A stretch of DNA of 64,000 bases from Candidatus Jorgensenbacteria bacterium. GTDB taxonomy: Bacteria > Patescibacteriota > Minisyncoccia > UBA6257 > GWB1-50-10. The stretch spans positions 16,071 through 80,070 of the forward strand of contig JAZDFV010000015.1 of assembly GCA_043807585.1 (NCBI GenBank), in the 5' to 3' direction. A program made the position numbers and the translations under genes. Positions 15,165 through 61,416 of this stretch are shown piece after piece. Within the stretch, counting starts at the first letter, position 1; every line of letters begins with the position of its first letter. Below the pieces are notes generated by a model. That model searched no databases. It saw only the letters and a list, made by a program, of their open reading frames with translations, and had not been told where the DNA came from.

Positions 15165-15181
15165 TTGGTGATGCGGGTCTG

Positions 15182-16362: not shown

Positions 16363-16399
16363 TTTGTCATTTTAACATTTTCGCCTTACTTCTCGTTGG

Positions 16400-36754: not shown

Positions 36755-36899
36755 TTTTTAATTTTACCCCTTCGATAAACTCAGGACAAGCAAAAAACCG
36801 TCTGTTTGGCGATTTTTATTGGCTTGCCCTGAGCTTGTTGAAGGGCTCCGCTGGATGGATGATGCCTGCCCTGAGCAAAGTCGAAGGGTTAGGGCCTGT

Positions 36900-37580: not shown

Positions 37581-37913
37581 GGTAATTAGGAGTATGCCAG
37601 TTCCGGACAGTTTTCGTTCCGCTGGATAGACGATGCCTGCCCCGTTACAAAACTTGTTTTTGCAATGGGGTGAGAACCTGTTTGGTCAGCACTAAAAAAT
37701 ATCTCGCCGGAAGGTACCTAGGTTTTATCGTCGATCACTCTCCCAATGGCAACGCCAACGGCCACGGCAACAAAAAACCAAAGAACTCTATCCCAAAGCC
37801 GAGAAAAGTGCTCTGGCTGGCCAAAAATACTGGCGAGGAAAAATGCCGCGATGACTATGTAAACCAACTCTTTCCACCATTTCATAACCATTCTTGTGAT
37901 GGGTGGGTGGTTT

Positions 37914-38147
37914 TCACTTTTCTAGCCCGCTTAATCTCAAACAATTTTGATAGATAAAATTTAATTCACTCCTTCTTTCTGATTCGGTATTATAGATACG
38001 CAGTAGGCTTTTTATTGCTGAATTAAAACAACTTTTTCTAATTTGTGCTGGGCGAATCTCCCACCAATAAAAAGCTCCGACAACAGAAATAACCAAAATG
38101 GCCAGTAACCCAATCTTAAACCAATTTTCTTTGAGCCAGTTTTTCAT
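37914..38147 (-). CDS. small hypothetical membrane protein
   Basis: 77 aa with one TM helix; AT-rich region. Confidence 0.3.
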   Translation of the reverse strand: MKNWLKENWFKIGLLAILVISVVGAFYWWEIRPAQIRKSCFNSAIKSLLRIYNTESERRSELNFIYQNCLRLSGLEK

Positions 38148-38183
38148 AATTCAGATTCGAAAGAAAAATTTCCCCTTTATGGA

Positions 38184-43797: not shown

Positions 43798-44844
43798 CTA
43801 GATAAAACGAGCTAAGAAGAAGAACACGAGCCCCAGGGTGGTAACCACGGCGGAGACTATCCAAAACCGCATGGTGACCTGGCTCTCTGGCCACCCCAAC
43901 GCCTCGAAGTGGTGGTGGATGGGGGTGGAGAGGAATACCTTCTTCTTGCGCAGTTTCTTGCTCGCGACCTGCACAATGACGGAACACGATTCCACCACGA
44001 AAATGAACGCAAAGAACGGCAGGAGGAGCGCCGTGTTGGTGAGCATCGCCATGACGCCGAGGGTGATACCAAGCGACATGGAACCGGTGTCTCCCATGAA
44101 AAAACGGGCGGGAAAGATATTGAACCAGAGGAAGGCGAGGAGCGCGCCCAAAATGGCGGCGTTCATGGCAGCGAGGTCATACCGGTGGATCACGAATGCG
44201 ACGACCGCGAACGCCATGAAGGCGAAGACAAGCACCCCGGCGGCGAGCCCGTCCAAGCCGTCAGTTTCGTTCGCCGAGAACGCGGTGGCGGTGAGGACGA
44301 AGACGAAAAAAGGGATATACCACCAACCGATGGTCACGGTTCCCACGAACGGGATGAAGAGCGCGTCGAACCCAAGCTTGAAGTAGAACCACCACGCGCC
44401 TACGGCCGCCACGGCGGCGTAGAGAACCAGTTTCCGCGGCACGGAGAGTCCTCCGCCGTGCGGCCCCTTTCCCAAAATGCCGAAGAGATCGTCAAAGAGC
44501 CCCACAAGCGCCGCAAAGAAGAGCGCCGCGAGAGGCAGGTACGTCTCCGCGCGATCCACAAAATTGAAATAGGATGCGAAACCGTCAAAGAGCGCATCGG
44601 CGGCGAGGAAAATAAGCGCGAGACCGAGCACCGTCACCCAAATGATGATGCCGCCCATGGTGGGCGTGTTCACTTTCCCCTTGTGGAGCGAGTAGAAGAT
44701 GGGCGCGCTTGCCTCGTCCCGGATGTTCTTTTTCTTGAGCCCGTGACGTTCCAAGAAATGAGCGACAAACGGCGTGATGAGAAGCGCCACGATGAACGAG
44801 ATGGCGAAGAGTATGAGAATGCGGACTGCCTCGAAGATTTCCAT
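43798..44844 (-). CDS. mraY: phospho-N-acetylmuramoyl-pentapeptide transferase
   Basis: Ten-TM MraY architecture and conserved motifs. Confidence 0.9.
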   Translation of the reverse strand: MEIFEAVRILILFAISFIVALLITPFVAHFLERHGLKKKNIRDEASAPIFYSLHKGKVNTPTMGGIIIWVTVLGLALIFLAADALFDGFASYFNFVDRAETYLPLAALFFAALVGLFDDLFGILGKGPHGGGLSVPRKLVLYAAVAAVGAWWFYFKLGFDALFIPFVGTVTIGWWYIPFFVFVLTATAFSANETDGLDGLAAGVLVFAFMAFAVVAFVIHRYDLAAMNAAILGALLAFLWFNIFPARFFMGDTGSMSLGITLGVMAMLTNTALLLPFFAFIFVVESCSVIVQVASKKLRKKKVFLSTPIHHHFEALGWPESQVTMRFWIVSAVVTTLGLVFFFLARFI

Positions 44845-44969
44845 CCCGTTAGAAACAGGTCGTCATAGACGACCGTAGTAAAAGCGGCTTTTTCTCAGAC
44901 GTTGTTATTTTACTTTTATAAATAAGGGATTGCATGGCGGTTGTTTTAGTTGTTTCTAACGGGATCCAT
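44842..44969. mobile_element. MITE-like element with 13-bp TIRs (cccgttagaaaca / tgtttctaacggg), filling the dac-stop to mraY-start spacer exactly; its terminal CAT is the mraY start codon
   Basis: catcccgttagaaacagg ... hairpin ... ttgtttctaacgggatccat. Confidence 0.7.
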
Positions 44970-44985
44970 GGTTGTTTACACCCGT

Positions 44986-45948
44986 TCAAAGCTCATAGGC
45001 CCGTTCGGCCCAATCAAGGATGAGGTTCACGTCGCGCACGCGATCCGTGCTCCCAAGAATCACTGCGACGAGCCGCTTGTCATGGAACGAGAGCACCCCG
45101 ACAAGATTCTCGCCGGCACTTTCCAGCGTCCCGGTCTTGCCGCCCAAAAAACGCGCGTCATTCACCAGCGGATTGATGTTCTGCGCCGTGCGGCTCGTTG
45201 GGTCATTCAGGGGCTGCACAAGGAATTGCGGTACGCGGGACCATGAGAAGATCTGCGGATGGTTTGCGAGGATGTAGCGCACCAGCCGGAGTAGGTCGTT
45301 GGGCGTAGCGGTCGTGAGGTCGGAGAGCCCAGCAGGATCGTCAATGTGGGTTCCCGTCATGCCTATCTTCAGGGCCTTTCCCTGCATTACCCGCACAAAC
45401 TCACGTTCCCCTCCGCCCGCTTCCGCAAACACCGACGCCGCATCGTTTGAAGATGTGAGGAGCATCACCCGTAGGAGATCTTGTGAGCGGTACACCTCGC
45501 CGCTCTGGAGTTCCCCCGCGTCGCCGTCGGCCGCAATTGCGGTCTCACTCACAGCCACTTTTTTGTTCTCGCCCAAATTCTCGAGTACGGTGACCGCGGT
45601 AAGCAGCTTTATCACCGAAGCGGTCGGTCGTGCGTTTTCGACGCCCATACCCCACAGCGTCATATCGTCGTCAAGCGAGTAGAGGAGCGCTCCGCGCGCG
45701 GACGGTGTAGGATCGGGCACGTCCCACTTTCTGACCGGCGCTCGATGTGCGCCGCCGAGCACTTCGAGGATCGATGCCCGTTTGAAAGAGACGTTCCCCG
45801 GAGCCGGGATAGGCGTTGAAGTTTCGGGGGCTGCGGAAATGGTTTTGGAGGAAGCGACGGGCGTTGCAACCTCAAAGTTCCGGTGGGTAAGCTCCGCGGA
45901 GATAAGAATGATGAGGATAAGGACAATGGACTGCCAGCGTTCTTTCAT
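44986..45948 (-). CDS. serine-type D-alanyl-D-alanine carboxypeptidase (PBP5/6 family)
   Basis: SxxK (ASVIK), SxN (TSSND) and KTG motifs; start at MKERW (track ORF extends through the repeat as MCYGRGARPVSNGM). Confidence 0.8.
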   Translation of the reverse strand: MKERWQSIVLILIILISAELTHRNFEVATPVASSKTISAAPETSTPIPAPGNVSFKRASILEVLGGAHRAPVRKWDVPDPTPSARGALLYSLDDDMTLWGMGVENARPTASVIKLLTAVTVLENLGENKKVAVSETAIAADGDAGELQSGEVYRSQDLLRVMLLTSSNDAASVFAEAGGGEREFVRVMQGKALKIGMTGTHIDDPAGLSDLTTATPNDLLRLVRYILANHPQIFSWSRVPQFLVQPLNDPTSRTAQNINPLVNDARFLGGKTGTLESAGENLVGVLSFHDKRLVAVILGSTDRVRDVNLILDWAERAYEL

Positions 45949-46076
45949 CCCGTTAGAGACAGGTCGCGCACCGCGACCGTAACACAACGGCCTTTTTTAT
46001 TATTAGACATCACTTTCCCTTTGTGGACGTTAAATAGCATAGTAAATTATTTTAGTTGTCTCTAACGGGATTCATA
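45946..46076. mobile_element. second copy of the cccgttagagaca-TIR element, lying exactly between the scpB stop and the dac start codon
   Basis: catcccgttagagacaggtcgcgcaccgcgacc... ttgtctctaacgggattcat; scpB stop tca at 46077-46079. Confidence 0.7.
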
Positions 46077-46718
46077 TCAGTGTTGCGGTGCCGTTTCGGC
46101 AGGGGTGGTCTCCGCTCCCGTATCCATTTCGATGCGCGCAAGGGCGCCGTGGAACCGTTCGTACTCGGGAAGCTCTTCGACGCGGGAAAACCCAAGGTGC
46201 TTCAAAAATTGAAAGCTTGGGAGGTAGTGGAACACATTCCCCTTCCCCTCGAAGTGCTGCCGTTCCACGAGCCCTCGCACGAGGAGATTCCGGACGGTGA
46301 AACTGGAATTGACGCCGCGGATGTAGTCAATGGTGGCGCGGGGCACCGGTCCCAGGTAGGCGATGAGGGAGAGTGTTTCAAGCCCCGCGGGGGAGAGTTC
46401 CTCGCGGAACTCCTCCTGGAGAAGCCGTTCTCCCACCTGTTTCTGTTCCGCCTTGGTGGCAAGCTGCACCGCCTCGTCATGGACGATAAGGGTGAGGCCG
46501 CGCGCCGGATCCCCGGCAAGCGCCGCCTGCCACTCTTGTATGAGCGCTTCGCACTTCGCCCGGTCCACGTCGAGAAGCTTCGCGATACGGCTCATTTTCA
46601 TAGGTTCCCCGTAGGAGAAAAGGAGTGCTTCAAGGCGCGGGAGCGCTGAGGGGGGCGTGTCCATAGTGATACTCATGTTACGTGTTTTGCTCGCGCCTCG
46701 CAACGGTAATCTCTCCAA
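46077..46718 (-). CDS. scpB: segregation and condensation protein B
   Basis: LEALLFSYGEPMKMSRIAKLL winged-helix repeat typical of ScpB. Confidence 0.8.
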   Translation of the reverse strand: MERLPLRGASKTRNMSITMDTPPSALPRLEALLFSYGEPMKMSRIAKLLDVDRAKCEALIQEWQAALAGDPARGLTLIVHDEAVQLATKAEQKQVGERLLQEEFREELSPAGLETLSLIAYLGPVPRATIDYIRGVNSSFTVRNLLVRGLVERQHFEGKGNVFHYLPSFQFLKHLGFSRVEELPEYERFHGALARIEMDTGAETTPAETAPQH

Positions 46719-47903: not shown

Positions 47904-48938
47904 TTAGCCATGCCTAATAACCATCACATCACCGTCCTGGACCACATAATCCTTCCCCTCCAACCGTAGCCAGCCCTTCTGTTTTGCAATCGCCCACGGC
48001 GATTGTCCTGAGCCTGTCGAAGGACCGCTCACTGAACGGGCCGCTTCAATCAGTTTCTCGTACGAGATGACCTCGGCGCGGATGAACTTCTTCTCAAAAT
48101 CGGTGTGGATGACCCCCGCCGCCTGCGGTGCCTTCCAGCCGCGCTCGATGGTCCATGCCCGTGTTTCGTCCTCGCCGGTGGTGAGGAAACTGATGAGCCC
48201 CAATACCTCGTACGCCTTCTTTATGAACGCGGGTATGGCGTCAGTCGTGGCGAGGTCGGCAATAAGGTAGCCCGCACCCATTTCCTTTATCTTCGCCTTA
48301 AGCTCGTCGTTCACATCACTTTCCTTGCCATTCAAAAGCACTATTTGTTTTTTGGCTGTGAGGAGCTGGAGATTGGCGACCGCCTCTTCATGTGCGAAAG
48401 GAGTGAGAGGGTTTCCCCCCGCGAGCGTTTCTTTCGCTTTGCGAAGCACGTCACAGTCGCGAATCGCGGTTTTGTTGCCGCCGCGCGCGTCCGCCACGGC
48501 GCCCGCGAGGCGCTTCTCCAGCGTCTCGAGGTCCTTCAGCGCGAGCTCCGCGCCGATGATCCCGAGGTCGCGCACCGGATCGGAGGTACCCTCCACATGC
48601 ACGATCTCGCTCCCGCCGAAGCAGCGCACCACCTGCACAATGGCTTTGCACTCGCGGATGTGTGCGAGGAACTGGTTTCCCAAACCTTCTCCCTTATGCG
48701 AGCCCTTCACAAGCCCAGCGATGTCGTAGAATTCCACGACTGCCGGGACCACCTTCTTGGAATGAGAGAGCGTCGCGAGCTTTTCCACGCGCTCATCGGG
48801 CACCTGCACCACGCCCACATTCGGGTCAATGGTGGCAAAGGGGTAGTTCGCGATGTGCACCTCCTGCTTCGTGAGAACCTTGAACAGCGTGGATTTCCCC
48901 ACGTTGGGCAATCCCACAATACCGATACTTAATTTCAT
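47904..48938 (-). CDS. ychF: ribosome-binding ATPase YchF/Ola1
   Basis: IGIVGLPNVGKSTLF P-loop, TGS C-terminal domain; start at MKLSIG (track ORF reads through the repeat as ...PISNGM). Confidence 0.9.
   Translation of the reverse strand: MKLSIGIVGLPNVGKSTLFKVLTKQEVHIANYPFATIDPNVGVVQVPDERVEKLATLSHSKKVVPAVVEFYDIAGLVKGSHKGEGLGNQFLAHIRECKAIVQVVRCFGGSEIVHVEGTSDPVRDLGIIGAELALKDLETLEKRLAGAVADARGGNKTAIRDCDVLRKAKETLAGGNPLTPFAHEEAVANLQLLTAKKQIVLLNGKESDVNDELKAKIKEMGAGYLIADLATTDAIPAFIKKAYEVLGLISFLTTGEDETRAWTIERGWKAPQAAGVIHTDFEKKFIRAEVISYEKLIEAARSVSGPSTGSGQSPWAIAKQKGWLRLEGKDYVVQDGDVMVIRHG
47986..48030. mobile_element. hairpin plus cctgagcctgtcgaagg element in-frame near the 3-prime end of ychF
   Basis: ttgcaatcgcccacggcgattgtcctgagcctgtcgaaggacc; same module as 20672-20735. 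Confidence 0.5.
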
Positions 48939-49064
48939 CCCGTTAGAGATAGGTTGCCGCAGGCAACCGTAACACAACGGCCTTTTTATTCTCAATCAAT
49001 GTTGTGTCTTTTTGAACGTCGAATCGCACAGGTAAGGGTCTTAGTTATCTCTAACGGGATTCAT
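48936..49064. mobile_element. third full copy of the cccgttagaga-TIR element, abutting the ychF start codon
   Basis: catcccgttagagataggttgccgcaggcaacc ... ttatctctaacgggattcat. Confidence 0.7.
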
Positions 49065-49150
49065 AATCGTTTGACCTCAACTCAAGAATATCGTACACTG
49101 ATATCGGCACAAAATCCACAAAACTTTCACAGAAAGGAAGGGAGGCGCCT

Positions 49151-49510: not shown

Positions 49511-50161
49511 TCACTTGCCCGAGAGGACAAATCGGTACTTCTTTTTTGACCACACCGGACCAGCATATTCAACTCCAATTCTTTCGCCTTTCGCGATTTG
49601 CCTCTTGCTAACCCGCACTCCCCTGTCCTCAATCCACAAACCTGTCCGTCGGCTGGCGCGCATGCCATTGAACCGCTTATCAATTTTGAAAAACCTTGTA
49701 ACCCGCCCCGGTCCGCTAATACACCGACACCGAGGTTCAACCTCTCTGTATGGAGGTTGAACCTCCATAAATTGAACACTTCTTATTAGAACCGCCGCAG
49801 GGTATCCTTTCTCGCGCGTCACCACATTCAGCATCCAGTGCATCCCATAGGTGAAGTACACGTACCAGCGCCCGGGCGGCCCGAACATAGGGGCGTTCCG
49901 CTTGGTGAGCCCCCGCGAGGCGTGCGAGGCCCCATCATGCGGCCCGTCGTAGGCCTCCACCTCGGTTATCATTGCGACGACGTACTTACGTCGTCGTCCT
50001 GAGGACATTCGGCTGAGCCCTTCGGCGGTGAGCTCAGGGCCGAACCGCTCAGTCGAAGCCCCTGTCGAAGGACATCTCCGCACCAAGTACTTCCCCAGTA
50101 GTTCCCGCGCCACCGCAAGCGCCGGACGCTCAAAAAATTTATCCGACAACAATTTTCTCAT
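49511..50161 (-). CDS. DNA-3-methyladenine glycosylase (Mpg/AAG family) with in-frame repeat insertion
   Basis: FFERPALAVARELLGKYLV ... ITEVEAYDGPHDGASHA ... FGPPGRWYVYFTYGMHWMLNVV match AAG blocks; [27 protein letters not shown] segment is encoded by the CTGAGC-family element (50010-50075). Confidence 0.8.
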   Translation of the reverse strand: MRKLLSDKFFERPALAVARELLGKYLVRRCPSTGASTERFGPELTAEGLSRMSSGRRRKYVVAMITEVEAYDGPHDGASHASRGLTKRNAPMFGPPGRWYVYFTYGMHWMLNVVTREKGYPAAVLIRSVQFMEVQPPYREVEPRCRCISGPGRVTRFFKIDKRFNGMRASRRTGLWIEDRGVRVSKRQIAKGERIGVEYAGPVWSKKKYRFVLSGK

Positions 50162-50215
50162 AAATCCCCCATCCTCAATTCATTCACGTACGTGAATGAA
50201 TTGAGGACACTCCAT

Positions 50216-50590
50216 CTACAGCAATCTTCGGACCTCTTCCATTACCCCTCGCGGGACCGGGTCACGCTCCGGGCTCTTCCCCGGGTACCGCCACGCCGTT
50301 ATCACTTTTATCTTCGGCTTTTCTATTAGCTTTGAGCTGTGAGCTTTTAGCTGTGAGCCAGCTCGTTGGCCGCGACCAACGAGCTTGTACATCACCCACA
50401 TCTCCTGGTACCGCTTGGTGCCGGCGGGTTGCATCACCGCCACGGTCTGCGGGGCGATCCCCTCCTCCACGCGCGAGGGGTGACGTATGATGCGGCGGAT
50501 GCGCCCCTCGGAAATGCCGTAGTACTGCATTTTCTCCACGACGTGGTACGTCCAGGAGTAGGTGCTATCCTCGCGAGGCAACTTTTGCAT
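50216..50590 (-). CDS. hypothetical small protein (possibly DUF4258/RelE-like) with in-frame palindromic insertion (agctgtgagc repeats, 50290-50350)
   Basis: Start taken at MQKLPRED; the insertion encodes GRGQRAGSQLKAHSSKLIEKPK. Confidence 0.3.
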   Translation of the reverse strand: MQKLPREDSTYSWTYHVVEKMQYYGISEGRIRRIIRHPSRVEEGIAPQTVAVMQPAGTKRYQEMWVMYKLVGRGQRAGSQLKAHSSKLIEKPKIKVITAWRYPGKSPERDPVPRGVMEEVRRLL

Positions 50591-50750
50591 GCTGGGGAAA
50601 ACTACAAATTCCAAGCACCAAACACCAAATAAATACCAATGTTCAAAATTCAAAACTTCTGAATTTCGGTCATTGTCTCGCTACGCGAGATCCCGCGAAG
50701 CGGGAGAAATTGGAATTTATTTGAGATTTGATTTTTGAGATTTGGGATTT

Positions 50751-51332
50751 TTATGGTCTCTGGTACAACCCCGTGAGGGCAGTTTGGTTAATGATGTGTC
50801 CCTCCATCGCCGCGAGGAGCGCGGCATTATCGGCGCCCGCGGGAACGGTGAGCATCGTATCCAAGGCATAGAGTGAAAAGACGTAGCGGTGGGGCTTGTC
50901 TCCGCGCGGCGGACACGGACCGCTGTACTTTACGTATCCAGCACTCGTTTTCCCCTGCACGGCATCGGACGGCAGATTGTCCTCGGAGATGTACTGCGTT
51001 TTCGGGTCTATGTTCCAGACGAGCCAGTGAATCCAGGTCCCGCGCGGCGCATCGGGATCATCCACCACGAGCGCAAAACTCACCGTGCCCTCAGGCGTGT
51101 TCTTGATCTCCAGAAATGGATTCACGTCGTCCCCGTCACAGGTAAACTTTGCGGGGATGGCACCGCCTTCCTTAAACACCGAGCTCTTGATGGTGAAAGT
51201 GTCCATGGGAACGTGAGAAGCCGGCACGGGGTTCCGCGGGGGTGCGAGGGAGATGCCAACCACGATGGCAATACCCACGCACCCGAGGAGAATCCACCGC
51301 ATGGCACCGTTTTCCACACCATTGTCTGGCAT
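50751..51332 (-). CDS. YbhB/YbcL-family phosphatidylethanolamine-binding (PEBP) protein
   Basis: FTCDGDDVNP ... VVDDPDAP ... HW ... YSGPCPP.GDKPHRYVFSLYALD signature. Confidence 0.75.
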   Translation of the reverse strand: MPDNGVENGAMRWILLGCVGIAIVVGISLAPPRNPVPASHVPMDTFTIKSSVFKEGGAIPAKFTCDGDDVNPFLEIKNTPEGTVSFALVVDDPDAPRGTWIHWLVWNIDPKTQYISEDNLPSDAVQGKTSAGYVKYSGPCPPRGDKPHRYVFSLYALDTMLTVPAGADNAALLAAMEGHIINQTALTGLYQRP

Positions 51333-51370
51333 TTTGGAAAAATTTACAAGCCGCGTATAATAGGGGCGTT

Positions 51371-52474
51371 ATGGCCATTGCTATCTACCGCCGCTACCGG
51401 CCGGCCACTTTCGGAGACCTCCTCGGGCAGGAGCTCACCGCCCGCACTCTGAAGGAAGCCGCGAAGCAGGAGAAACTCGCCCACGCGTACCTCCTAGCGG
51501 GGCCGCGCGGCACAGGGAAGACCACCACCGCGCGCCTTATCGCCAAGATAGCGAACTGCGAGACCCGCGCGAAGGACGCGAAGTTCCGCGCGGAGGGAGA
51601 GCCCTGCAACCACTGCACCCATTGCACCGAGATCGACGAGGGGCGCAGTTTGGATGTGATAGAAATAGACGCGGCGTCAAACCGCGGCATTGATGAAATG
51701 CGGGACCTGAAGGAGAGCATTCGCGTCTCCCCCTCCTCATCACGCCACAAGGTGTTCATCATTGACGAGGCGCACCAGCTCACGAAGGACGCCTTTAATG
51801 CGCTCTTAAAAAGTTTGGAGGAGCCGCCGCCCCACATCATTATGATCCTTGCGACCACGGAGGCAGACCGCATCCCGCCGACCATCATTTCACGCACCCA
51901 GCAGTTCTACTTCCGCCGCGTGCCAAGGGAGCTCGTCATGCAAAAACTCACCCGCATCGCCAAGGAGGAACAGGTGGATGTGAGCGGGGAAGCACTGGAC
52001 CTCATCGCCGCCTCCGGTGAGGGTAGCTTTCGCGACGCAGAATCGCTCCTGGACCAGCTAATCTCTTTCGGCGGCCACAGCATCGCCCTCACCGACGTGG
52101 AGGGCATGATAGGCAAGGTGGGATTCGCGAAACTCTCTGCATTCGCGGGGCTCCTCATTGCGGGAGACCGCAAGGCGGCGCTCGCCGCGCTCGCTGAACT
52201 TTCCGATGCCGGCTACAACCTCGCCCAATTCACCAAGGATCTCATCCAGTACCTCCGCCGCGTGGCGGTCATCGCCTACAGCGCTTCCATGAAAGACGTG
52301 TTTGCGCGGGAACTCACCGCCGAGCACGTCGCCCAGCTCACAGAGCATGCCAAGGAGTTCAAGGACAAGCACCTGGAACTCCTGAAGGGCCTCATCCACG
52401 CCTACAGCCAGATGCGCTACAGCCAGTTCCCGATAATTCCGTTGGAAGTTGCGATAATAGAAGCGCTGAAATAG
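51371..52474 (+). CDS. dnaX: DNA polymerase III subunit gamma/tau (short, gamma-like)
   Basis: YRPATFGDLLGQE, GPRGTGKTTTARL Walker A, CNHCTHC zinc module, FIIDEAHQL. Confidence 0.85.
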   Translation: MAIAIYRRYRPATFGDLLGQELTARTLKEAAKQEKLAHAYLLAGPRGTGKTTTARLIAKIANCETRAKDAKFRAEGEPCNHCTHCTEIDEGRSLDVIEIDAASNRGIDEMRDLKESIRVSPSSSRHKVFIIDEAHQLTKDAFNALLKSLEEPPPHIIMILATTEADRIPPTIISRTQQFYFRRVPRELVMQKLTRIAKEEQVDVSGEALDLIAASGEGSFRDAESLLDQLISFGGHSIALTDVEGMIGKVGFAKLSAFAGLLIAGDRKAALAALAELSDAGYNLAQFTKDLIQYLRRVAVIAYSASMKDVFARELTAEHVAQLTEHAKEFKDKHLELLKGLIHAYSQMRYSQFPIIPLEVAIIEALK

Positions 52475-52537
52475 AAAATACGCTTTCATTTATGGACTAG
52501 GCTATGCTATAATAGAGCATATTACCTAGGTTCGTTT

Positions 52538-53224
52538 ATGTTATCCCCTTCTCTTAAAGAAAAGGCTGTCGCGCTCCGGCGTGGTGGTCTTTCTTACTCT
52601 GAAATACTCAACCAAATACCAATTGCAAAATCAACTCTTTCGACGTGGTTACATTCGGTTGGATTATCCAAAAAACAAAAGCAACGACTGACGGAAAAGA
52701 AATTAGCTTCTGCAAGACGCGGCGCTTTTAGAAAGCACGAAATAAGACTCTTAAAAACGGATGCTATTTTCAAAGAGGCAATAAAAGATATTGCCCATAT
52801 TTCCGAAAGAGAGTTGTTTCTTATAGGCGTTGCGTTGTATTGGGCAGAAGGAGCTAAAGAAAAAGAATGGAGGCCTGGGTCAGGGGTACAATTCACAAAC
52901 TCAGATGCTTCTATGGTAACACTCTTCTTGAAATGGCTTACTGATGTGTGCCGTGTAGATAAAGATGAAATCTACTTTGACCTTTTTATTCACGAAACCA
53001 GCAAGAATCGAGTTAGTTCTATAATTGATTATTGGTCCAAACATACAAATTTTCCAAGAAATTACTTCCAGCACGTTTATTTTAAACGAAATAAACTAGC
53101 CACCAAGAGAAAAAACGTTGGAGATTCTTATTTTGGAGTTATAAAGGTGAGAGTAAAAACAAGCTCAACACTAAATAGAAAAATTGCAGGATGGACAAAG
53201 GGCGTGATAAAGTATGCAAAGTGA
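52538..53224 (+). CDS. hypothetical protein with N-terminal HTH and a LAGLIDADG-like core (possible degenerate homing endonuclease), low GC, ending 2 nt before tRNA-Gln
   Basis: LSYSEILNQIPIAKSTLSTWL HTH-like; ELFLIGVALYWAEGAKE resembles a LAGLIDADG helix. Confidence 0.35.
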   Translation: MLSPSLKEKAVALRRGGLSYSEILNQIPIAKSTLSTWLHSVGLSKKQKQRLTEKKLASARRGAFRKHEIRLLKTDAIFKEAIKDIAHISERELFLIGVALYWAEGAKEKEWRPGSGVQFTNSDASMVTLFLKWLTDVCRVDKDEIYFDLFIHETSKNRVSSIIDYWSKHTNFPRNYFQHVYFKRNKLATKRKNVGDSYFGVIKVRVKTSSTLNRKIAGWTKGVIKYAK

Positions 53225-53226
53225 AT

Positions 53227-53297
53227 TGGGGGGTGGTGTAACGGTAGCACGCCAGGCTTTGAACCTGGAAATTTAGGTCCGATTCCTAGCCCCCCAG
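53227..53297 (+). tRNA. tRNA-Gln (anticodon TTG); T-loop reads TCCGATT (C at position 55); CCA not encoded
   Basis: Hand-folded cloverleaf: acceptor TGGGGGG/CCCCCCA, 3-bp D-stem GTG/CAC (as in E. coli tRNA-Gln), anticodon stem CCAGG/CCTGG, loop CTTTGAA, T-stem TTAGG/CCTAG. Confidence 0.6.
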
Positions 53298-53544
53298 CAC
53301 TCAATTTTTCTTAGCAAGGAACGAGCTTAGAAAAATGAGTGCTCCGACCGGAGAGTCTGAGCGAATAAGTCAGCGCAGCCTGCCCTGAGTTAACCCTGGG
53401 TTTGCCGAAGGATTTATCGAAGGGTATCGAGGGGCCGAGGAGCCTCATAAATATGCTAATAACTACAGGAAAGGACCTAGAGCCAAACATAAAAAATATC
53501 TCGAAAACATAGAGAGTCGGTTTTTATTTCATGATATTTACGGA

Positions 53545-54411
53545 TTGAAACATCCTCTAGCAACCTATAATGTTTCCTTCGGGAAGGTTGAGAGTGATTT
53601 ACAGGATTTTTTTGTTGCGTATAAAAATATTGAAATTAGAGATTTTCTTCCGGAAAACAAAAGCGATGAGAAGATAAAAGAAGCATTAAAACGTTATAGG
53701 GTTTTTCTTTATTCTTTAAGAGAGTATCTAGACGACTGCTTTCATGTCGTAAAAACCTTTATCCCTCCGCAACCACAATTTAGATACAATAAAAATCAAT
53801 ATGATTGGTTGAAACAAAATATTATCATGCCACATATGGTGTCTTTTCTTAGTAAAATTGATACCTATAAAAAGTTCTTAGATAGTATTGTTAATGAACT
53901 CAAACACAATAACGCTGTTCTAAACGGGATTGTTTTCTATGACACAATCACCAAAGATTTTTCATTAGGATACTATATAGCAAATGTGTTCAATGGAAGA
54001 TATGAACCAGTAGAGAAAATCCACCAGAAATTTCATAATCAAGACACCGCGTTTTCTTTCGCGAGGGATATTAGATATAACTCTTGCAATATCTTTCAAT
54101 TATCTGAGGAACTAGTTGAATTTATTGTTAATGGTTTGAAATTGCAGATACCTGTACCTACGCAGGAACGAACTCCAAATGAGGAGCGCCGCTTGCTATA
54201 TGAAGATATTTCTAATCTACCAAGATATTTTTTCCCTGATGAATATCAAAAAGATGTTCCAAGCGTAGTACTAAGAGAAAATAGTGCATTAAAATTAGAG
54301 CTCCCTTCTAAACTTTCTTTGAGACCACTCCATCACAACAGAGTGTTGCTTTATCACTCTGGCGATGGGAAAACGAGGAGTTTTGCATTACTTTACTACT
54401 CTGGAGAATAA
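53545..54411 (+). CDS. hypothetical protein, AT-rich island
   Basis: 288-aa ORF, no recognised family. Confidence 0.4.
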   Translation: MKHPLATYNVSFGKVESDLQDFFVAYKNIEIRDFLPENKSDEKIKEALKRYRVFLYSLREYLDDCFHVVKTFIPPQPQFRYNKNQYDWLKQNIIMPHMVSFLSKIDTYKKFLDSIVNELKHNNAVLNGIVFYDTITKDFSLGYYIANVFNGRYEPVEKIHQKFHNQDTAFSFARDIRYNSCNIFQLSEELVEFIVNGLKLQIPVPTQERTPNEERRLLYEDISNLPRYFFPDEYQKDVPSVVLRENSALKLELPSKLSLRPLHHNRVLLYHSGDGKTRSFALLYYSGE

Positions 54412-54504
54412 CCCCGACCGAGACGGGTCAATGGGAAAATGCATTTCCAGCAACTTCTCCCTCCTTGTTGTTCCTAACCGCCCTTCTATACTGGAGGTAC
54501 GCCT

Positions 54505-54753
54505 ATGAGAAAGATTATTGGTTCAATATTGGATATTGCTTACTACCTTTTAGGAGCATCTGCGGTGGTAGTTTTATACGCTATCTTCAAATCATCAGTA
54601 CCGTCGGGCCTACGCTGGCTTTTTTGGGTCGTTTTTATCGGGGGTCTCTGGTTAGTGGCTTGGATAGTGGCCCGGAAACAGGGTAAATCATTTTGGGATA
54701 TTTGGAGTGAAAACAAAGAAAGTGGATCCGATCAAGATAAGTCAGCAAAATAG
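54505..54753 (+). CDS. hypothetical two-TM small membrane protein
   Basis: 82-aa ORF, two hydrophobic helices. Confidence 0.4.
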   Translation: MRKIIGSILDIAYYLLGASAVVVLYAIFKSSVPSGLRWLFWVVFIGGLWLVAWIVARKQGKSFWDIWSENKESGSDQDKSAK

Positions 54754-54832
54754 GTTCGAATAGCGTTCTTACTACGCAACACGAGTCAGCACGGTATCGA
54801 GAGACCAAGAGAGATAACAACGTGTTACTAGA

Positions 54833-55546
54833 ATGAACAACAACGGGGAACTTAAAAAGAAGCTTGATGAACTGGTTAAAAATGCTGACTTCATTCTGGC
54901 TAGTCCCGATACGTTAGAAAAACTAAAGGCGAGGGGATTTCCCATTCAATCTAAGTTTGTAACTTATCAAGAATATCTAGATAAATTATTTGAAGAGAAA
55001 AAGAAAAATGCCAATGAAATCATTCAGGATTTCCCGCCGCTTTCTGATAAGTTAGCGAATGCCGCAATAAAATCATTATACGAAGAGATAAGAGAATGCT
55101 ATGCCTTAGGTCTATTTGGAGCAGCCATAACTTTATCGGTAATTCTTTTAGAACTGGGTTTTAAATATAAAATTTATAACAAAAGAAGAGAACATGATCC
55201 AAAATCACAATGGGAAAAAATAGAAATAATCGATCTTACTACGGCAATCAAAAATTTAAAAAATCTTGGTGAATTATCAAATTCTGAGAAAAAAGAATTG
55301 GACAATTTTAATTTAGAGATAAGAAATCCGTACATCCACTATAATTTACAAAAACTAGTTTGCAATATAATGGTAGAAAAGTTACCTCTACTCAAAACCG
55401 AAACAGGCGAGATGGAAATTCTTGAGAATGTAGAAGTTGCAAAAAAACCTTATTTATGGTTTTCGGGTAAAAAATTTGTGGATAAAAATCAAGCTCACAG
55501 CATACTTAAGTTTTGTATTGGGTGGGTAAATAAAGTTTTGGGATAG
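54833..55546 (+). CDS. hypothetical protein, AT-rich
   Basis: 237-aa ORF, no recognised family. Confidence 0.4.
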   Translation: MNNNGELKKKLDELVKNADFILASPDTLEKLKARGFPIQSKFVTYQEYLDKLFEEKKKNANEIIQDFPPLSDKLANAAIKSLYEEIRECYALGLFGAAITLSVILLELGFKYKIYNKRREHDPKSQWEKIEIIDLTTAIKNLKNLGELSNSEKKELDNFNLEIRNPYIHYNLQKLVCNIMVEKLPLLKTETGEMEILENVEVAKKPYLWFSGKKFVDKNQAHSILKFCIGWVNKVLG

Positions 55547-55616
55547 AGTTTTCTTACCCCGACCGAAACCCTCCTTCAGTAAACTTTCGGACGGGCAGGC
55601 CCTTCAACGGGTTCGG

Positions 55617-55700
55617 CAAGGGCTTCGACTGAGCGGTTCGGCCCTGAGCTCACCGCCGAAGGGCTCAGCCGAATGTCCTCACCGCAAGCAAGCTCAGGGC
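55617..55700. mobile_element. intergenic copy of the CTGAGC-family element (ggcttcgactgagcggttcggccctgagctcaccgccgaagggctcagccgaatgtcc)
   Basis: Near-identical to 60158-60232 and the reverse complement of 50010-50075. Confidence 0.65.
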
Positions 55701-55790
55701 AAGCGGGTCAGTTTGACCGCTAGATTGACTGTGATAAATAGAAGACCCACACGAATGTGGGTCTTTTGGTTTCTACCTCTCAATATATCT

Positions 55791-57272
55791 TCACTGCTGA
55801 AGTATTTCCTGATAAAGCGTAGCTTCGTTCTTCAGTAAATATCCAGCCGTAAATATTCTCCTCCACCTCTCGCGCGCCTCGGCGGCGCTGAACACCATCC
55901 GGAGGATCTCGTTCCACCGCTCCACCTCCTCTTTCGATATATCAAGTTCATCGGTACGTCGAAGATCCCCTCTTTCAATGATTTCTCTGATGGACAGCGG
56001 GATGGATTCCTCGCCGCGATATTTCTCGAGAAGCGCATCGGCTTCCGCGAGTGAGTGATTCACTGTTTCCCTGATTTCTTTCATGTTCGCCGACGGCTCA
56101 AACACATTGAATGCCGCAAGCTGGACAATGCGGTACCCGGTTTCTCCGTCAATACCGAAGGAAACGCCCTCTCTTTTCAGAAACTCCTTCGCCTCGCTCG
56201 ATGCATAACATCCGCGCAATTCCACGATCTCTTGGAGCATGTGGTCTGGATAGACCACGAGCCCCGTGAGCACGGTATTCATGCGTTTTAGGGCGAACGT
56301 GAGTACGTGGAAAAGGTCGGGCCATGCGACCCTTTCGACTGACGACTGTTCGATTGACCGTTCCTCCCACGTGACCACGTTCTCGCGTATCGCGTCAAAA
56401 TACCCCCGCGCAAGCCGTGCCATTCCCTGGATGTTCTCCGAAAAAATGGTGTTCTTCTTGTGCGGCATCGCCGACGAACCTTTCTGCTTCCTACTGAACG
56501 GCTCGTGGTAGATGGGCCGGCCGCTCCGCGCACCAAGCCGTATGTCGAGCGCGATCTTCTCGAGCGAAAGACTTATCTGAAGCAGGGCGCCCGCAAGCGG
56601 AAGATGCAGCTCACGCGGCAATATCTGAGTCGCTCCGTAGAACGGCTCGAAACCGAGAAGTTCAAGTGCTCGCCTCTCCACTGCGGGGTTGATGCTGCCA
56701 TAATTGCCGATCGCGCCGGAGATCTTCGCATACTTGAGCCCATCCTGCGCGGCATAGAAAGCTGTCGCACTTTCCCCCAACGTCCGAAGCCACGTCAGGC
56801 ATCTCTTGCCGAACGTTTGGAGCTCCGCTTCCTGGCCATGGGTTCTCCCGTTCATGATGGTGTAGCGGTGTTTGAGCGCGAGCACCTTCAAGGTTGGCAC
56901 GAGATCGTGCACCATCTCCTCCACAACCTCACAGGATTGCTTCAGCATTTTCATGAACGCCGGCTCCTCTGTGTCGTAGGAGGTGATGTTCTCGTGAAAA
57001 TAGCGGTGGAGCCCGACGGGAAGATACTGTCGCCGTTCGTCGAGGAACGCATTCAGGTCGTGGCGGATCTCTTTATCCCTTGCATACCACCACGCAATGT
57101 CGATTGGTGCATTTTCAAGCGCTGTCCGTATCTCTAGATGCGTCCCACGGGGGAATTGGCCCAGCTCTTCGTTCGCCTGAACGACCGCGAGTTCGGTATC
57201 CTGCCAATGTGCCAATCTTCTCTCGTCCTTCCAAATCTCCGCAATCCGGGCGTCTTCATAACGTGTGATCAT
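55791..57272 (-). CDS. purB: adenylosuccinate lyase
   Basis: GSSAMPHKKNTIFSEN signature; fumarate-lyase fold; start taken at MITRYEDARIAEIW. Confidence 0.85.
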   Translation of the reverse strand: MITRYEDARIAEIWKDERRLAHWQDTELAVVQANEELGQFPRGTHLEIRTALENAPIDIAWWYARDKEIRHDLNAFLDERRQYLPVGLHRYFHENITSYDTEEPAFMKMLKQSCEVVEEMVHDLVPTLKVLALKHRYTIMNGRTHGQEAELQTFGKRCLTWLRTLGESATAFYAAQDGLKYAKISGAIGNYGSINPAVERRALELLGFEPFYGATQILPRELHLPLAGALLQISLSLEKIALDIRLGARSGRPIYHEPFSRKQKGSSAMPHKKNTIFSENIQGMARLARGYFDAIRENVVTWEERSIEQSSVERVAWPDLFHVLTFALKRMNTVLTGLVVYPDHMLQEIVELRGCYASSEAKEFLKREGVSFGIDGETGYRIVQLAAFNVFEPSANMKEIRETVNHSLAEADALLEKYRGEESIPLSIREIIERGDLRRTDELDISKEEVERWNEILRMVFSAAEARERWRRIFTAGYLLKNEATLYQEILQQ

Positions 57273-57473
57273 AGGAACCTCCGTTATATAGTGATCAAGG
57301 TAAGTGGATTTGAAATTGACTAGGATGACCATACCAATTCCCTCCGAGAATGTCAATCAATTTTCCGCTTACCTTTCTCTTATACTAAAGTCGCCCTCCC
57401 GGGGCTCCGTAACCGAAAAGCCCCACCGATTACCTCGATGGGGCTTTTTATGTTCGCGGGAGGGTGTCCACGC

Positions 57474-58121
57474 TCACTCACGGAGACCTTTGGATATCAT
57501 CAAAAACTTTTCCAAACCGATCCACGTTCCGTCCTCACCGGTAACGAGAGTTTGTTCGTACAGCCTGGGGTTGCGCAAGTGAAACTCGTCAATCCCAAGT
57601 ATCTCGAACACCTCCCTTACCGCATCCACCGCTTCGAAGAGATATTTGCTCTCGTCACGCCTGTAGACGAGGAAGTCGGTCGTATCCGGCGCGGGTGGAG
57701 TTCGCTCCGACGTTGAGCAATCGAAAGTGAAAAGGAGATCACCACTCGTCTGCACGTACGCCTCCTTAATGGACTTGCCTATCTCTTTTGTGCGTCGTTT
57801 GAGATCGGCTTGGAACGCGCCGACTTTTCCGGAATCGGGACAGTTCTCAAGCATCACCAGGACTTCTCCCTTGCTTTTATCAAGCGGGGCGGCGCGGCGC
57901 GCACGGACGAACCGGACCGTACGCCGGTGGTTCTGACCCTCGACTGCACCCAATTCGGTCGTCACGGGTTTCTCGAACTTCGAAAAATCCCAATCCATGA
58001 ACCTAATGACCCATGCCTCGAGAGTTTGGGGTATTTTCTCCGGTCGTTTCATGCGAGGTTCCTCCAGAAGAGTGATTGATTCAGTTGTTTGTTGAGCTGG
58101 CGTGAATATAACATTGTTCAT
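57474..58121 (-). CDS. hypothetical protein
   Basis: 215-aa ORF. Confidence 0.35.
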   Translation of the reverse strand: MNNVIFTPAQQTTESITLLEEPRMKRPEKIPQTLEAWVIRFMDWDFSKFEKPVTTELGAVEGQNHRRTVRFVRARRAAPLDKSKGEVLVMLENCPDSGKVGAFQADLKRRTKEIGKSIKEAYVQTSGDLLFTFDCSTSERTPPAPDTTDFLVYRRDESKYLFEAVDAVREVFEILGIDEFHLRNPRLYEQTLVTGEDGTWIGLEKFLMISKGLRE

Positions 58122-58157
58122 GCTTTCCTGTCAAATGAATCAAAACCCGCCGCATGG

Positions 58158-59432
58158 TCATCTTCGCCGCTTGGAATGACCGAACCTCTGCGGTCCCCGG
58201 AATCCGCCGCGCTGATCGCTGAAACGGGAATGGGCTCCGGCGGGACGGCGGTCATGGCCGAAACGGGATTTCGGCGCATCGGGAATCCGGTCAGTCCTGC
58301 GGGCCGGAGGAAGCTCGGGGAGCTTTGAGAGCGGCAATACGGCGCGAATGAGGCGCTCGATCCCCCGCACGTCCCCCCTCTGGTCGGGTGTCGCGAAGGA
58401 AATGGCGTGCCCCGCGCCCCCAGCGCGGGCGGTGCGGCCGATGCGGTGCACGTAATCCTCCGGACTCTGGGGGAGATCATAATTCAGCACCAATTCTATC
58501 CCCTTAACGTCTATCCCCCGCGCGGCAATATCGGTGGCGATGAGCACGCGATACGTGCCGTTTTTGAATCCCTCAAGCGCGGCGCGGCGTTGGGCAAGCG
58601 AACGGTTTGCGTGGATTTCGGCGGCCGCGTGGCCCATCGCGCGAACGTTCGCAGTGATCTTGCGCGCGCCGAATTTTGTCCGCGAAAACACGAGCACGGA
58701 ACCCCGGTACTCATACAGGATCTTTTCCAAGAGACGCGGCTTGTCATGCTTCTCCACGAAGAAAAGTTCCTGTGTCACCTTCGCGACGGTGGTGCCGGAG
58801 GGGGCGATCTCCACGCGTATTGGAAGCTTCATGTTCGCCTGCGCGATAGCCAAGATGTCCTGGGGCATGGTGGCCGAGAAGAGCATCGTCTGCCTGTGGC
58901 GGGGCACTACATTGAGTATCCTCTGCAACTGCGGCGCGAAACCCATATCGAGCATCCGATCCGCCTCATCGAGCACGAGAACGGCAACCGATCCCAACGA
59001 GAGGGTCTTCCCCTGCAGGTGGTCGAGGATCCTCCCCGGCGTGCCGATGATTATCTGAGGATCTTTCTGAAGCGCGAGGAGCTGGCGGCTGATGGATTCG
59101 CCGCCGATGAGGACCGCCGTCCGCGCGCCGGGGGACGCGCCAATCTTATGAAAAACATCGTTCACCTGAGCCGCGAGCTCACGCGTGGGCAGTATGACGA
59201 GCCCCCGCTTTCCGCGAAGCACGGCCTGGATCATAGGTACCGCGAAGGCCAGCGTTTTCCCCGTGCCGGTCTGGGCAATGCCGATCATATCTTTTCCTTC
59301 CAGCGCCGGGGGAATGGATTTTTCCTGAATGGGGGTGGGAACGGTGAAGTTGAGTTTATCAAGCACCGCCAGTATGTTCGGCGCAATGCCGAGGCGATAA
59401 AAACCGGAAGATTGGTTCATAGGAGATACCAT
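58158..59432 (-). CDS. DEAD-box ATP-dependent RNA helicase
   Basis: Q-motif, AQTGTGKT, DEAD, SAT, HRIGRTARAG; Arg/Gly-rich C-terminal tail. Confidence 0.85.
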   Translation of the reverse strand: MVSPMNQSSGFYRLGIAPNILAVLDKLNFTVPTPIQEKSIPPALEGKDMIGIAQTGTGKTLAFAVPMIQAVLRGKRGLVILPTRELAAQVNDVFHKIGASPGARTAVLIGGESISRQLLALQKDPQIIIGTPGRILDHLQGKTLSLGSVAVLVLDEADRMLDMGFAPQLQRILNVVPRHRQTMLFSATMPQDILAIAQANMKLPIRVEIAPSGTTVAKVTQELFFVEKHDKPRLLEKILYEYRGSVLVFSRTKFGARKITANVRAMGHAAAEIHANRSLAQRRAALEGFKNGTYRVLIATDIAARGIDVKGIELVLNYDLPQSPEDYVHRIGRTARAGGAGHAISFATPDQRGDVRGIERLIRAVLPLSKLPELPPARRTDRIPDAPKSRFGHDRRPAGAHSRFSDQRGGFRGPQRFGHSKRRR

Positions 59433-59451
59433 AGCACAAAAAATGGAGGGG

Positions 59452-61416
59452 TTAACGCAGTGCGTTACGGAGTATCCGCTTGCGCAGGCGGATGCTTTTG
59501 GGCGTCACCTCCACCAGCTCGTCCTCGCCGATGTACTCCAGCGCCTGCTCCAGGGAGAGCGTGCGGGGCGGGACGAGATCGTCGGTTACCGCGTCCGTCT
59601 TGGCCCGGAAGTTCGTCAGCTGTTTCTGCCTGCAAACGTTCACCGCAATGTCGTTCGCCTTGGCATTCTGCCCCGCCACCTGTCCCTCATACACCTTCTC
59701 GCCGGGACCGATGAACATGACGCCCCGTTCCTGCGCGCGCAGGAGCGCATACGCGGTGGTCGTGCCCGTTTCGTGTACGATAAGCGAACCGTGTGCGCTC
59801 GTCGGGATAAAATCCAGTTTCGGGAAGTAACCAGCGAAAAGCGAGTTCACGACGCCGGTGCCCCGGGTTTCTATTATGAACTCGTTCCGGAAACCGATGA
59901 GACCGCGGGTGGTGATGAAAAAGTGGAACGAGGCGATGCCGTTATCAACACTCATGTTTTTGAGCTCGCCCCTCCGCATGCTCATTTTCTGAATGACGAG
60001 GCCGGCATACGCCTCCGGCACCTCGATCCACACGTCCTCCGTCGGCTCCAGCATTACGCCGCTCTCCTCCTCCCTTCGACTTTGCTCAGGGTGGTACGGT
60101 ACTAAATCGCTAGATGTGCTATCGGTATTTGACGTTGCATTGTTGCCTGGGTGGTGAGGGCTTCGACTGAGCGGTTCGGCCCTGAGCTCACCGCCGAAGG
60201 GCTCAGCCGAACGTCCTTGTCGAACCATGAAAATGACCTCCGGCCGCGAGACCTGCACCTCATAGCCCTCGCGCCGCATGGTTTCTATGAGGATCGCGAG
60301 GTGCAGCTCGCCGCGCCCGCTCACGACGAATTCGTCGGCGGAGGCGCCCTCCTCAACGCGGAGCGCCACGTCATTGTCGAGTTCCCTGAAGAGCCGCTCA
60401 CGGATGTTGCGTGACGTGCAGTATTCCCCTTCCTCTCCGGAGAAGGGTGAATCATTGGCCGAGAACACCATTTTCACCGTGGGCTTTTCAATGGCGATGG
60501 GAGTCAGGGGGTCCGGATGGGCGGCATCCGCGAGCGTGTCGCCGATATTCACCTCTGGGATCCCCGCGATGGCCACAATGTCGCCCGCGGGCACGGCATC
60601 GATGGGCACGCGTCCCAAGCCGGAGAACGTCATGAGTTCCGTGATCTTGAAATTCTTGACCGCACTGCCGCTCCGGAGGTGCGCGATCGTCATGCCGTTC
60701 TCCGCGACGCCGCGATGGATGCGCCCCACTGCGATCCTCCCCTGGTAATCGTTGTATTGTATGGAAGCCACCATCATCTGGAACGGCGCATCGCTCTCCA
60801 TCTTCGGAGCGGGGATGTGCTGGAGAATGGCCTCAAAGAGCGGGGCGATATTTTTCATGGCGGCGAGGTCCGGCGCGATGCCCGCCACTCCAAATTTGCC
60901 CGCCGCGTAGAGAATGGGAAAATTCAGCTGTTCGTTCGTCGCGCCAAGCTCAAGGAAGAGCTCGATTACCTTTTCAAGCACGTAGTGCACGCGCGCACTT
61001 TTCTTGTCTATTTTATTGATCACGAGAATGATCTTATGCCCCGCGTTGAGCGCCTTCTTGAGCACAAAACGGGTCTGCGGCATCGGCCCCTCCTGCGCAT
61101 CCACGAGCAGGAGCGAGCCGTCCACCATATTAAGGACGCGCTCCACCTCCCCGCCGAAGTCCGCGTGACCGGGCGTGTCAATGATGTTGATCTTCGTCCC
61201 CCGGTAGACCACGGCGGCGTTCTTGGAAAAAATGGTGATGCCGCGCTCCCGCTCGAGCTCGTTCGAGTCCATGATGAGCTCGTTATTCACCAGCTTGCCG
61301 AGCTTGGTCTCGGATTGCTTCAGGAGCGCGTCAACGAGGGTGGACTTGCCGTGGTCTACATGAGCAATAATTGCTATATTTCGAATCTGCATAATATTCT
61401 CTAACTCTAGCTCCAA
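59452..61416 (-). CDS. typA: translational GTPase TypA/BipA carrying an in-frame repeat-element insertion
   Basis: [18 protein letters not shown]1, [13 protein letters not shown]; about 49-aa low-complexity insertion ([40 protein letters not shown]) encoded by 60158-60232. Confidence 0.85.
60158..60232. mobile_element. CTGAGC-family element inserted in-frame in typA
   Basis: gggcttcgactgagcggttcggccctgagctcaccgccgaagggctcagccgaacgtccttgtcgaa. Confidence 0.65.

Follow-up and report, generated by a model that had tools for sequence, protein, structure and literature searches.

Palindromic repeats that insert in frame into protein-coding genes are known from the Rickettsia palindromic elements (RPEs), which set the precedent for coding inserts of this kind (Ogata et al. 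2000; reviewed in PMC10969869), and intragenic copies of repetitive extragenic palindromic (REP) sequences have been reported to encode 20–30 amino acids, notably in repair genes (Di Nocera et al. 2013, PMC3733652). The present analysis concerns a family of short, nested hairpin repeats in a 64-kb stretch of a metagenome-assembled genome (MAG) of Candidatus Jorgensenbacteria; this whole stretch is called the window, all coordinates refer to it unless a locus is named, and labels beginning with L and P denote the loci and proteins compared with it. The TypA and AAG products of the window are identical to two proteins encoded on a single 101,314-bp contig of such a MAG. Bacteria of the candidate phyla radiation (CPR) are characterized by very small, streamlined genomes in which little repetitive DNA is believed to be present. 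In the literature searched, no prior description was found of the motif, of its peptides, or of repeats in Patescibacteria resembling REPs or transposable elements of the miniature inverted-repeat kind (MITEs). Within these 64 kb, repeat-derived coding segments are present in at least four conserved genes, namely typA, ychF, ppsA and the gene for a 3-methyladenine DNA glycosylase (AAG). As judged from the sequences compared, the family is probably a selfish, non-autonomous and self-targeting one, akin to REPs, to the REP doublets forming hairpins (REPINs) and to RPEs, whose genic copies are tolerated as presumably translated loops.

Copies were located by reading the sequence directly and with a repeat finder. 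Three full 57-nt nested palindromes were found, one each in the AAG gene, in typA and in an intergenic spacer. They are 98–100% identical to one another, a single base setting one copy apart, and have the consensus GGCTTCGACTGAGCGGTTCGGCCCTGAGCTCACCGCCGAAGGGCTCAGCCGAA(T/C)GTC. A 27-nt short form, corresponding to the 57-mer without its inner 30-mer, lies inside ppsA. These copies bear out a first-pass annotation of the window, which had placed the element in the same three sites, with the AAG copy in the opposite orientation, and a shortened version in ppsA. The in-frame dispersal that it had described for typA and AAG also holds for ppsA and ychF: the open reading frames (ORFs) are free of stops throughout, and the typA, AAG and ychF sites are empty in close relatives. 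The end motifs of the element gave four exact matches in the window against 0.35 expected from shuffles, the simple unit CCTGAGCCTGTCGAAGG occurred four times against 0.14 expected, and a stricter combined regular expression found seven matches against none in shuffles. The element folds as a long interrupted hairpin, with RNA energies of −34 to −50 kcal/mol and z-scores down to −3. The tally for the window is seven loci and one weak one, five of them intragenic (six if the second ppsA site is included).

The monomer of the family is a stem-loop of about 20 nt, in which a variable stem of 3–6 bp surrounds the conserved loop TGAGC-N2-4-GTCGAA. Of 40 distinct sites with this loop, drawn from the window and the fetched loci, 28 have a directly flanking stem of 3 bp or more, whereas permutation gave 4.4; the stems covary, and 11 different stem triplets occur. 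When viral contigs were scanned for the loop only, 31 of 123 sites carried stems of at least 3 bp, about three being expected. All four palindromes of the window lie within such units. The simpler relatives listed in the first-pass annotation do contain units at the sites named; they are, however, not side members of the family but the target units that host all four palindromes, and the one downstream of tRNA-Gln, although related, is only a degenerate and weak member.

The 27- and 30-nt palindromes each consist of two units on opposite strands which overlap at TGAGCTCA, and the exact 57-mer results when the 30-mer CGGTTCGGCCCTGAGCTCACCGCCGAAGGG is placed in the 27-mer after its CTGAG. The four palindromes of the window are bounded by [C/G][C/G]TGAG and CYTGYCGAA, two in each orientation; their junctions cannot be shifted, and target duplication is zero in all four. 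Copies from other genomes have their inner 30-mer in either orientation relative to the outer part. The insertion point, CTGAG^C in the loop of the unit, is valid at all three levels of nesting, and the palindromes nest because they themselves carry this site. The family is thereby built up as a hierarchy, from the stem-loop unit to the overlapped dimer (27- or 30-mer), the nested 57-mer and the spaced inverted pair seen in typA. A pseudoknot formed by crossed complementarity of the 2-nt linkers of the 57-mer was considered and rejected, the closing stems of two overlapped opposite-strand units being the simpler explanation.

The typA gene (59452–61416, minus strand) encodes a protein with the Pfam domains GTP_EFTU, EF-G_D2, EFG_III, EFG_C and BipA_C, and its ORF runs without stops through the insert. 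This insert had been put at about 75 nt, but it is actually 153 nt net, with the 57-mer nested in the left end of an older insert of about 96 nt. The older insert is composed of the inverted stem-loop units ATGG-TTCGACAAGCTCA-CCA(C/T) and ACCC-TGAGCAAAGTCGAA-GGG, separated by a spacer of about 60 nt in a REPIN-like layout. In the window the 57-mer splits GGTGAG and CTTGTCGAA, which are contiguous in L005. On alignment of the DNA, the empty site reads ATTTTC-AAG-GAGGA, and the filled site starts with ATGGTTCGACAAGCTCACCA and ends with CCCTGAGCRAAGTCGAAGG. The insert occupies amino acids 391–447, between EFG_III (337–389) and EFG_C (455–530), which corresponds to about residues 391–396 of E. coli BipA. 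It is absent from the closest relatives, P0002 and P0003, which share 93–94% protein identity with the window, and the typA DNA of the insert-free loci L001 and L004 is 89–92% identical to that of the window. In P0004, P0006 and P0053, an insert of 34–39 amino acids is found at the identical position (VIF/MVRQAHH...PYHPE.SRR/EEE, the slashes marking its borders). The older insert is present in the independent assemblies L005, L006 and L007, with decay of the units in some lineages such as L006. On a neighbour-joining tree of 120 TypA homologues, the five with the MVRQ...PE.xRR insert are scattered, and its occurrence among Parcubacteria is patchy.

The flanking typA sequence of the window is 74.4% identical to that of L005, with 46.7% identity at third positions, against 85.9% identity in the insert, where 27 of 33 third positions (82%) agree. 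This high third-position identity implies either that the insert is younger than the divergence of the host genes or that its nucleotides are constrained; the former would mean repeated acquisition at one site or recombination tracts too short to be detected. The differences are distributed over all codon positions, which gives scant sign of constraint at the protein level. Import by recombination from an L005-like donor was considered and rejected, the flanks being L001-like up to the junctions with no tract visible. No consensus RNA structure was obtained for four typA inserts (RNAalifold, −8 kcal/mol, no covariation), so a structured RNA or ribozyme in the insert is unsupported. Elsewhere, the same linker holds unrelated inserts (KEAAPDGGEPRPISGRE... 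and SAKGGSASGG, among P0032, P0035, P0039, P0089 and P0084), and its short form IVRRAHDDPEQG may be a collapsed MVRQ...PEQ insert. The annotated N-terminal extension of the TypA protein P0004, MNSILRQNSGLMLSKAEA, reads two repeat units upstream of the true start (L005, 259–299), and in this case the repeats thus generate spurious coding sequence. Small stand-alone GIY-YIG ORFs are located near typA in L004 (13135–13398), L006 (9500–9742) and L007 (17012–17155), with no link to the repeats established.

The AAG gene (49511–50161, minus strand; Pfam Pur_DNA_glyco) is likewise stop-free through its insert. The orthologue in L110 has an empty site, those in L109 and L111 carry the basic unit alone, CCTTCGACAAGCTCAGG (CPSTSSGR), at the site of the window insert, and in the window the same CPSTSSGR-type unit is interrupted by the 57-mer. 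It had been claimed that one peptide is shared by unrelated loci; its reading frame is the real one only in AAG, while typA reads the other strand and encodes a different peptide. The AAG model (predicted template modelling score 0.77, otherwise fair) places insert residues ~31–58 in a loop of low predicted local distance difference test (pLDDT) score between strands 25–30 and 59–72. The AlphaFold model of TypA, built from a 12-sequence alignment, had a mean pLDDT of 43, too poor for placing the insert, which was located by domain matches instead. In the Parcubacteria AAG proteins P0136, P0148, P0216 and P0150, unit-derived peptides in other frames occur at the same hairpin (APTRGRSG, PVRQAHG), and other repeat-like peptides, e.g. 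PARIATRSVAGGG, PARNASRSEAGGG and NPSTGSTSLTTSRGFAHG, at other loops; repeat-derived coding inserts thus seem to be common in this group.

The ppsA gene (20330–22921, minus strand) is stop-free through both of its repeat sites. Compared with the distant solved structure PDB 2OLS, the sole comparison made, it has two inserts, a solo unit read as TTLRQAQGHI and a unit interrupted by the 27-mer, with the reading TLRQ[GHSAELSRSP]QGK. The unit in ychF (47904–48995, minus strand) also leaves the frame free of stops, and the 39-nt insert to which it belongs is missing from the orthologues in L110 and L111. By synteny with the related MAG represented by L110 and L004, which come from one assembly, the net length gained in the window is 153 nt for typA, 78 nt for AAG and 39 nt for ychF.

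The lengths of the inserts (21, 27, 30, 39, 57 and 153 nt) are all divisible by three, and four of the six frames of the palindromes and five of the six of the unit are free of stops. Lengths in threes and mostly open frames point to the survival of those copies that landed in tolerant loops and linkers. The inserts are in fact in places predicted to be tolerant, a low-pLDDT loop in the AAG model and the inter-domain linker of TypA, and the genic ones are probably read as extra protein loops.

The distribution of the family was followed in GTDB representative genomes by means of a loose palindrome pattern, the MAG of the window not being among the genomes scanned. There were 93 genome matches, about half of which turned out to be unrelated hairpins, e.g. 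in Actinomycetota; palindromes of the same kind are found in many phyla. Copies with 90–96% identity were identified in a Brocadiales MAG (L075), in the Saccharibacteria MAGs L090 and L095 and in Bacterium BMS3Bbin08 (L064, L087), and one Nitrospirota MAG has many near-identical, slightly shorter copies. The two words TTCGRC and TGAGC are also found in related arrangements in Cyanobacteria, Anaerolineae/Caldilineales, Dadabacteria, Calditrichota and Bacteroidota. Two of the near-identical copies lie in frame within conserved genes, that of L075 in mutS and that of L095, read as ASTERFSPEFTAGLSR, in the gene of a PolyA_pol/CCA-adding enzyme. Viral or prophage contigs commonly contain the basic unit; a phage vector for the palindrome is unsupported, the scan of viral contigs having given one match that was apparently unrelated. 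No units were found in the 28.7 kb available from the close relatives L004 and L110, and the presence of few or no units in the available stretches of close relatives indicates that the expansion was lineage-specific.

A mechanism can be proposed in which a unit already in place would receive a palindrome in its loop, after CTGAG^C, in either orientation and without target duplication. Repeated insertion at the site carried by the palindromes themselves would lead to nesting, the 57-mer being a 30-mer within a 27-mer. Genic insertions would then be filtered by selection for frame, lack of stops and structural tolerance, and copies in tolerant surface loops or inter-domain linkers would survive, presumably translated as extra loops and presumably neutral. 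Mobility would be provided in trans by a hairpin-specific enzyme nicking the loop, for which an HUH/Y1-type transposase is the most plausible class. A conserved loop, a variable stem, a fixed break point and the lack of duplication are together the kind of outcome to be expected from HUH-type nickases and from single-strand transposases.

Several points weigh against such a selfish hairpin family. No transposase or REP-associated tyrosine transposase (RAYT) was found among the ~46 ORFs of the window scanned against Pfam, and the evidence for recent movement consists of the presence/absence pattern. Known single-strand transposases do not typically leave both orientations at one target. In its exact architecture the 57-mer is rare, the metagenome collection yielding seven loci. 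Conservation is seen in the loop across phyla and in the nucleotides of the unit within diverged coding regions, where they are nearly unchanged between AAG genes whose proteins are only ~60–70% identical; both may instead reflect a host function. It can be suggested, as a tentative and rather doubtful extension, that the repeats form a third, hitherto undescribed REP-like superfamily of bacteria, with the 14-nt loop TGAGC-N2-4-GTCGAA, no GTAG- or CGTC-tagged stem and a loop-nicking enzyme inserting at CTGAG^C, which might range over Patescibacteria, Planctomycetota, Nitrospirota, Cyanobacteria, Chloroflexota, Bacteroidota and prophage-like contigs. If true, this would account for repeats nested in their own kind, for copies nearly identical from one phylum to another and for a typA insert of younger age than the gene around it.

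The possible host function leads to another explanation, according to which the unit is a host-beneficial cis element of DNA or RNA, such as a binding or processing site of a conserved protein, and its copies are selected, the coding ones being by-products. The retention of the 14-nt loop across many phyla while the stems covary, the near-constant unit in the diverged AAG genes and the third-position identity of the typA insert (82%, against 47% in the flanking gene) would all fit. Nevertheless, copies occur in both orientations and regardless of context, be it intergenic or either strand of a coding sequence, the orthologous sites are empty in close relatives, one of which has no unit in 28.7 kb, and units are decaying in lineages such as L006. 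The typA insert is without a consensus RNA structure, and Rfam, searched at the gathering threshold with the whole window and at E ≤ 10 with the typA site, gave only tRNA-Gln and noise. A cis element is for these reasons considered unlikely. Much less likely still is the removal of the inserts by RNA splicing, translational bypassing or protein splicing, which would leave typA and AAG proteins of normal length. The homing-like recurrence of the typA insert at one identical position among scattered lineages, seemingly younger than the host gene, and the strong hairpins formed by the inserts could be taken in this way, but all genic copies are stop-free and multiples of 3 nt, which is not required of an element that is removed. 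Moreover, no intron or ribozyme family was matched in Rfam, no conserved RNA fold was seen, and the inserts start with MVRQ... and C-PSTG..., without the Cys/Ser nucleophile needed by inteins.

Loops and linkers of CPR proteins are often variable in length, and the typA linker, as seen above, holds unrelated inserts in other lineages; the inserts might on this basis be ordinary, vertically inherited, low-complexity and lineage-specific insertions that are alike by chance or composition. This is already refuted by identical 57-mers in two unrelated genes and an intergenic spacer and by the same sequence in other phyla, and with about zero matches expected in shuffles and sites empty in close relatives the explanation is highly improbable. 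The least credible is an artefact of assembly or binning with chimeric joins at the repeat, which had been named among the findings that would overturn the first-pass annotation. Short identical repeats can mislead assemblers, and similar elements are found in other organisms from groundwater samples; however, both flanks of each genic copy continue the gene in frame and line up with the orthologous genes and gene order found in related MAGs, which excludes chimerism for the genic copies, and the older typA insert recurs in independent assemblies. The hairpin family that inserts into its own loops is retained as the preferred reading.

The features of the family in the window are collected in Table 1.

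Table 1. Positions of the repeat copies and inserts in the 64-kb window
Feature	Position	Strand	Context
57-nt nested palindrome in typA	60159–60215	+	between GGTGAG (60153–60158) and CTTGTCGAACC (60216–60226)
Whole typA insert	60073–60228	−	156 nt in place of one Lys codon; net +153 nt (51 aa)
57-nt nested palindrome in AAG	50004–50060	−	between CCTGAG (49998–50003) and CCTGTCGAAGG (50061–50071)
Whole AAG insert region	49979–50077	−	basic unit (CPSTG..SSGR) + 57-mer; 99 nt vs 21 nt in L110 orthologue
Intergenic 57-nt palindrome	55621–55677	+	surrounded by further degenerate units (55600–55710)
27-nt short palindrome in ppsA	21718–21744	+	between CCCTGAG (21711–21717) and CTTGTCGAAGGG (21745–21756)
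Solo basic unit CCCTGAGCCTGTCGAAGGG in ppsA	20700–20718	+	belongs to 10-aa insert TTLRQAQGHI vs PDB 2OLS
Solo basic unit in ychF	48007–48023	+	core of 13-aa (39-nt) insert, about RSVSGPSTGSGQS
Intergenic three-unit cluster	36760–36900	36769–36785 (−), 36828–36844 (+), 36870–36887 (+)	first two form an inverted pair
Degenerate relative, weak member (CCCTGAG...TATCGAAGGG)	53380–53440	+	directly downstream of tRNA-Gln

The intergenic three-unit cluster sits in a 3.7-kb low-GC segment (35961–39695) which, compared with L110, is an insertion between murG and gltX and also contains an Exo_endo_phos gene and a gene for a DUF5667 protein. The intergenic 57-mer lies at the far end of a segment of ~40% GC (53227–55700) that follows tRNA-Gln and consists of unannotatable ORFs. 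In L001, two direct copies of the sequence immediately 3' to this tRNA (11985–12036 and 14140–14216) bracket an MjaI-type restriction-modification cassette, which suggests an integration hot spot.

Other elements were also encountered. A conserved leader of ~125 nt is found on the minus strand upstream of mraY, of an S11 peptidase gene and of ychF (44835–44985, 45940–46090 and 48930–49080), and again in relatives (L110:6450–6595; L001:4840–4975 and 19125–19270). It contains a 15-bp long-range helix, ATCCCGTTAGAGACA/TGTCTCTAACGGGAT, the 3' arm of which reaches the start codon (AACGGGATGAAA), and, internally, a hairpin of 7 bp. Compensatory changes are seen in both helices (RNAalifold, −34 kcal/mol, nine pairs with double changes), and no Rfam match was found for the leader, which may sequester the ribosome-binding site. 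A perfect or near-perfect 38-nt palindrome, GACATTCTCACATTCTGCAGAATGTGAGAATGTC, is present in five copies (7347–7384, 12383–12420, 12743–12780, 15128–15165 and 16239–16276) in a region whose genes include those for a Pif1-like helicase, REase-like proteins, DUF3800 and a methylase-Mrr fusion, and these copies resemble operator sites such as a mobile or defence island would have. The same low-GC region holds three copies, 77–91% identical, of a direct repeat of 73–104 nt (15318–15434, 16271–16387 and 18853–18925).

The inserts are of wider interest because they inflate protein lengths and create spurious shared peptides, and can mislead homology-based annotation and binning. The element also amounts to a natural experiment on the tolerance of a translation GTPase and a DNA glycosylase to insertion. 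Taken with the variable stems and the presence in several phyla, the fixed insertion point in the conserved loop points to a hairpin-specific enzyme not yet linked to any repeat family.

Among the known systems, inteins and self-splicing introns are set apart by the lack of an Rfam match, of a consensus fold and of a starting Cys/Ser nucleophile. Classical MITEs (Correia/NEMIS, QMITE, Nezha) are likewise short and non-autonomous, with inverted-repeat structure and occasional in-frame fusion to ORFs, but the present family lacks target-site duplication, its members are much smaller than the usual 70–300 bp, and no parent insertion sequence was seen in the window or the fetched loci. With IS200/IS605 elements it shares the lack of target-site duplication, insertion directly 3' to a fixed, short sequence (CTGAG in this case) and reliance on hairpins; it differs in that both orientations are found at the same target strand rather than a fixed one, in that asymmetric left and right end hairpins are missing, and in that no gene for a Y1 transposase (TnpA) was found in the window. 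This resemblance is one that we infer at the level of mechanism only. The small dispersed repeats (SDRs) of Nostoc are reportedly hairpins of ~21–27 nt, nested in each other or in other repeats and with no known enzyme. By description, these cyanobacterial repeats, too, are very small, hairpin-forming and nested, although in-frame coding insertion is not known to be their hallmark.

REPs and REPINs are comparable in being short, imperfect hairpins of 20–40 nt which occur singly, as head-to-head dimers and as spaced inverted pairs (Bertels & Rainey 2011, PMC3116915; Di Nocera et al. 2013, PMC3733652), and REPs of the CGTC family are likewise without a known dedicated transposase. In the present family, however, the loop is conserved and the stem variable, GTAG is absent, (C/T)GTC is found at one end only, and the CGTC-family architecture (an 8–9 bp stem starting with AT, a 4–5 nt loop and a CCA tail) is missing. 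Most loci in the window are intragenic, whereas REPs are predominantly extragenic, and no RAYT accompanies them among the ~46 ORFs. The RPEs, to which the family is likened by description, are longer (~100–150 nt, against 20–57 nt here) and belong to Rickettsia, while the present hosts are Patescibacteria, Planctomycetota and others; further differences are that the element nests in its own kind at one set point of the loop and that its sequence recurs across phyla. In other respects the likeness to RPEs is extensive: in both cases, palindromic elements are found in small, reduced genomes as many copies inside unrelated housekeeping genes, inserted in frame where tolerance is to be expected, with the ORF left intact and a recurrent peptide encoded.

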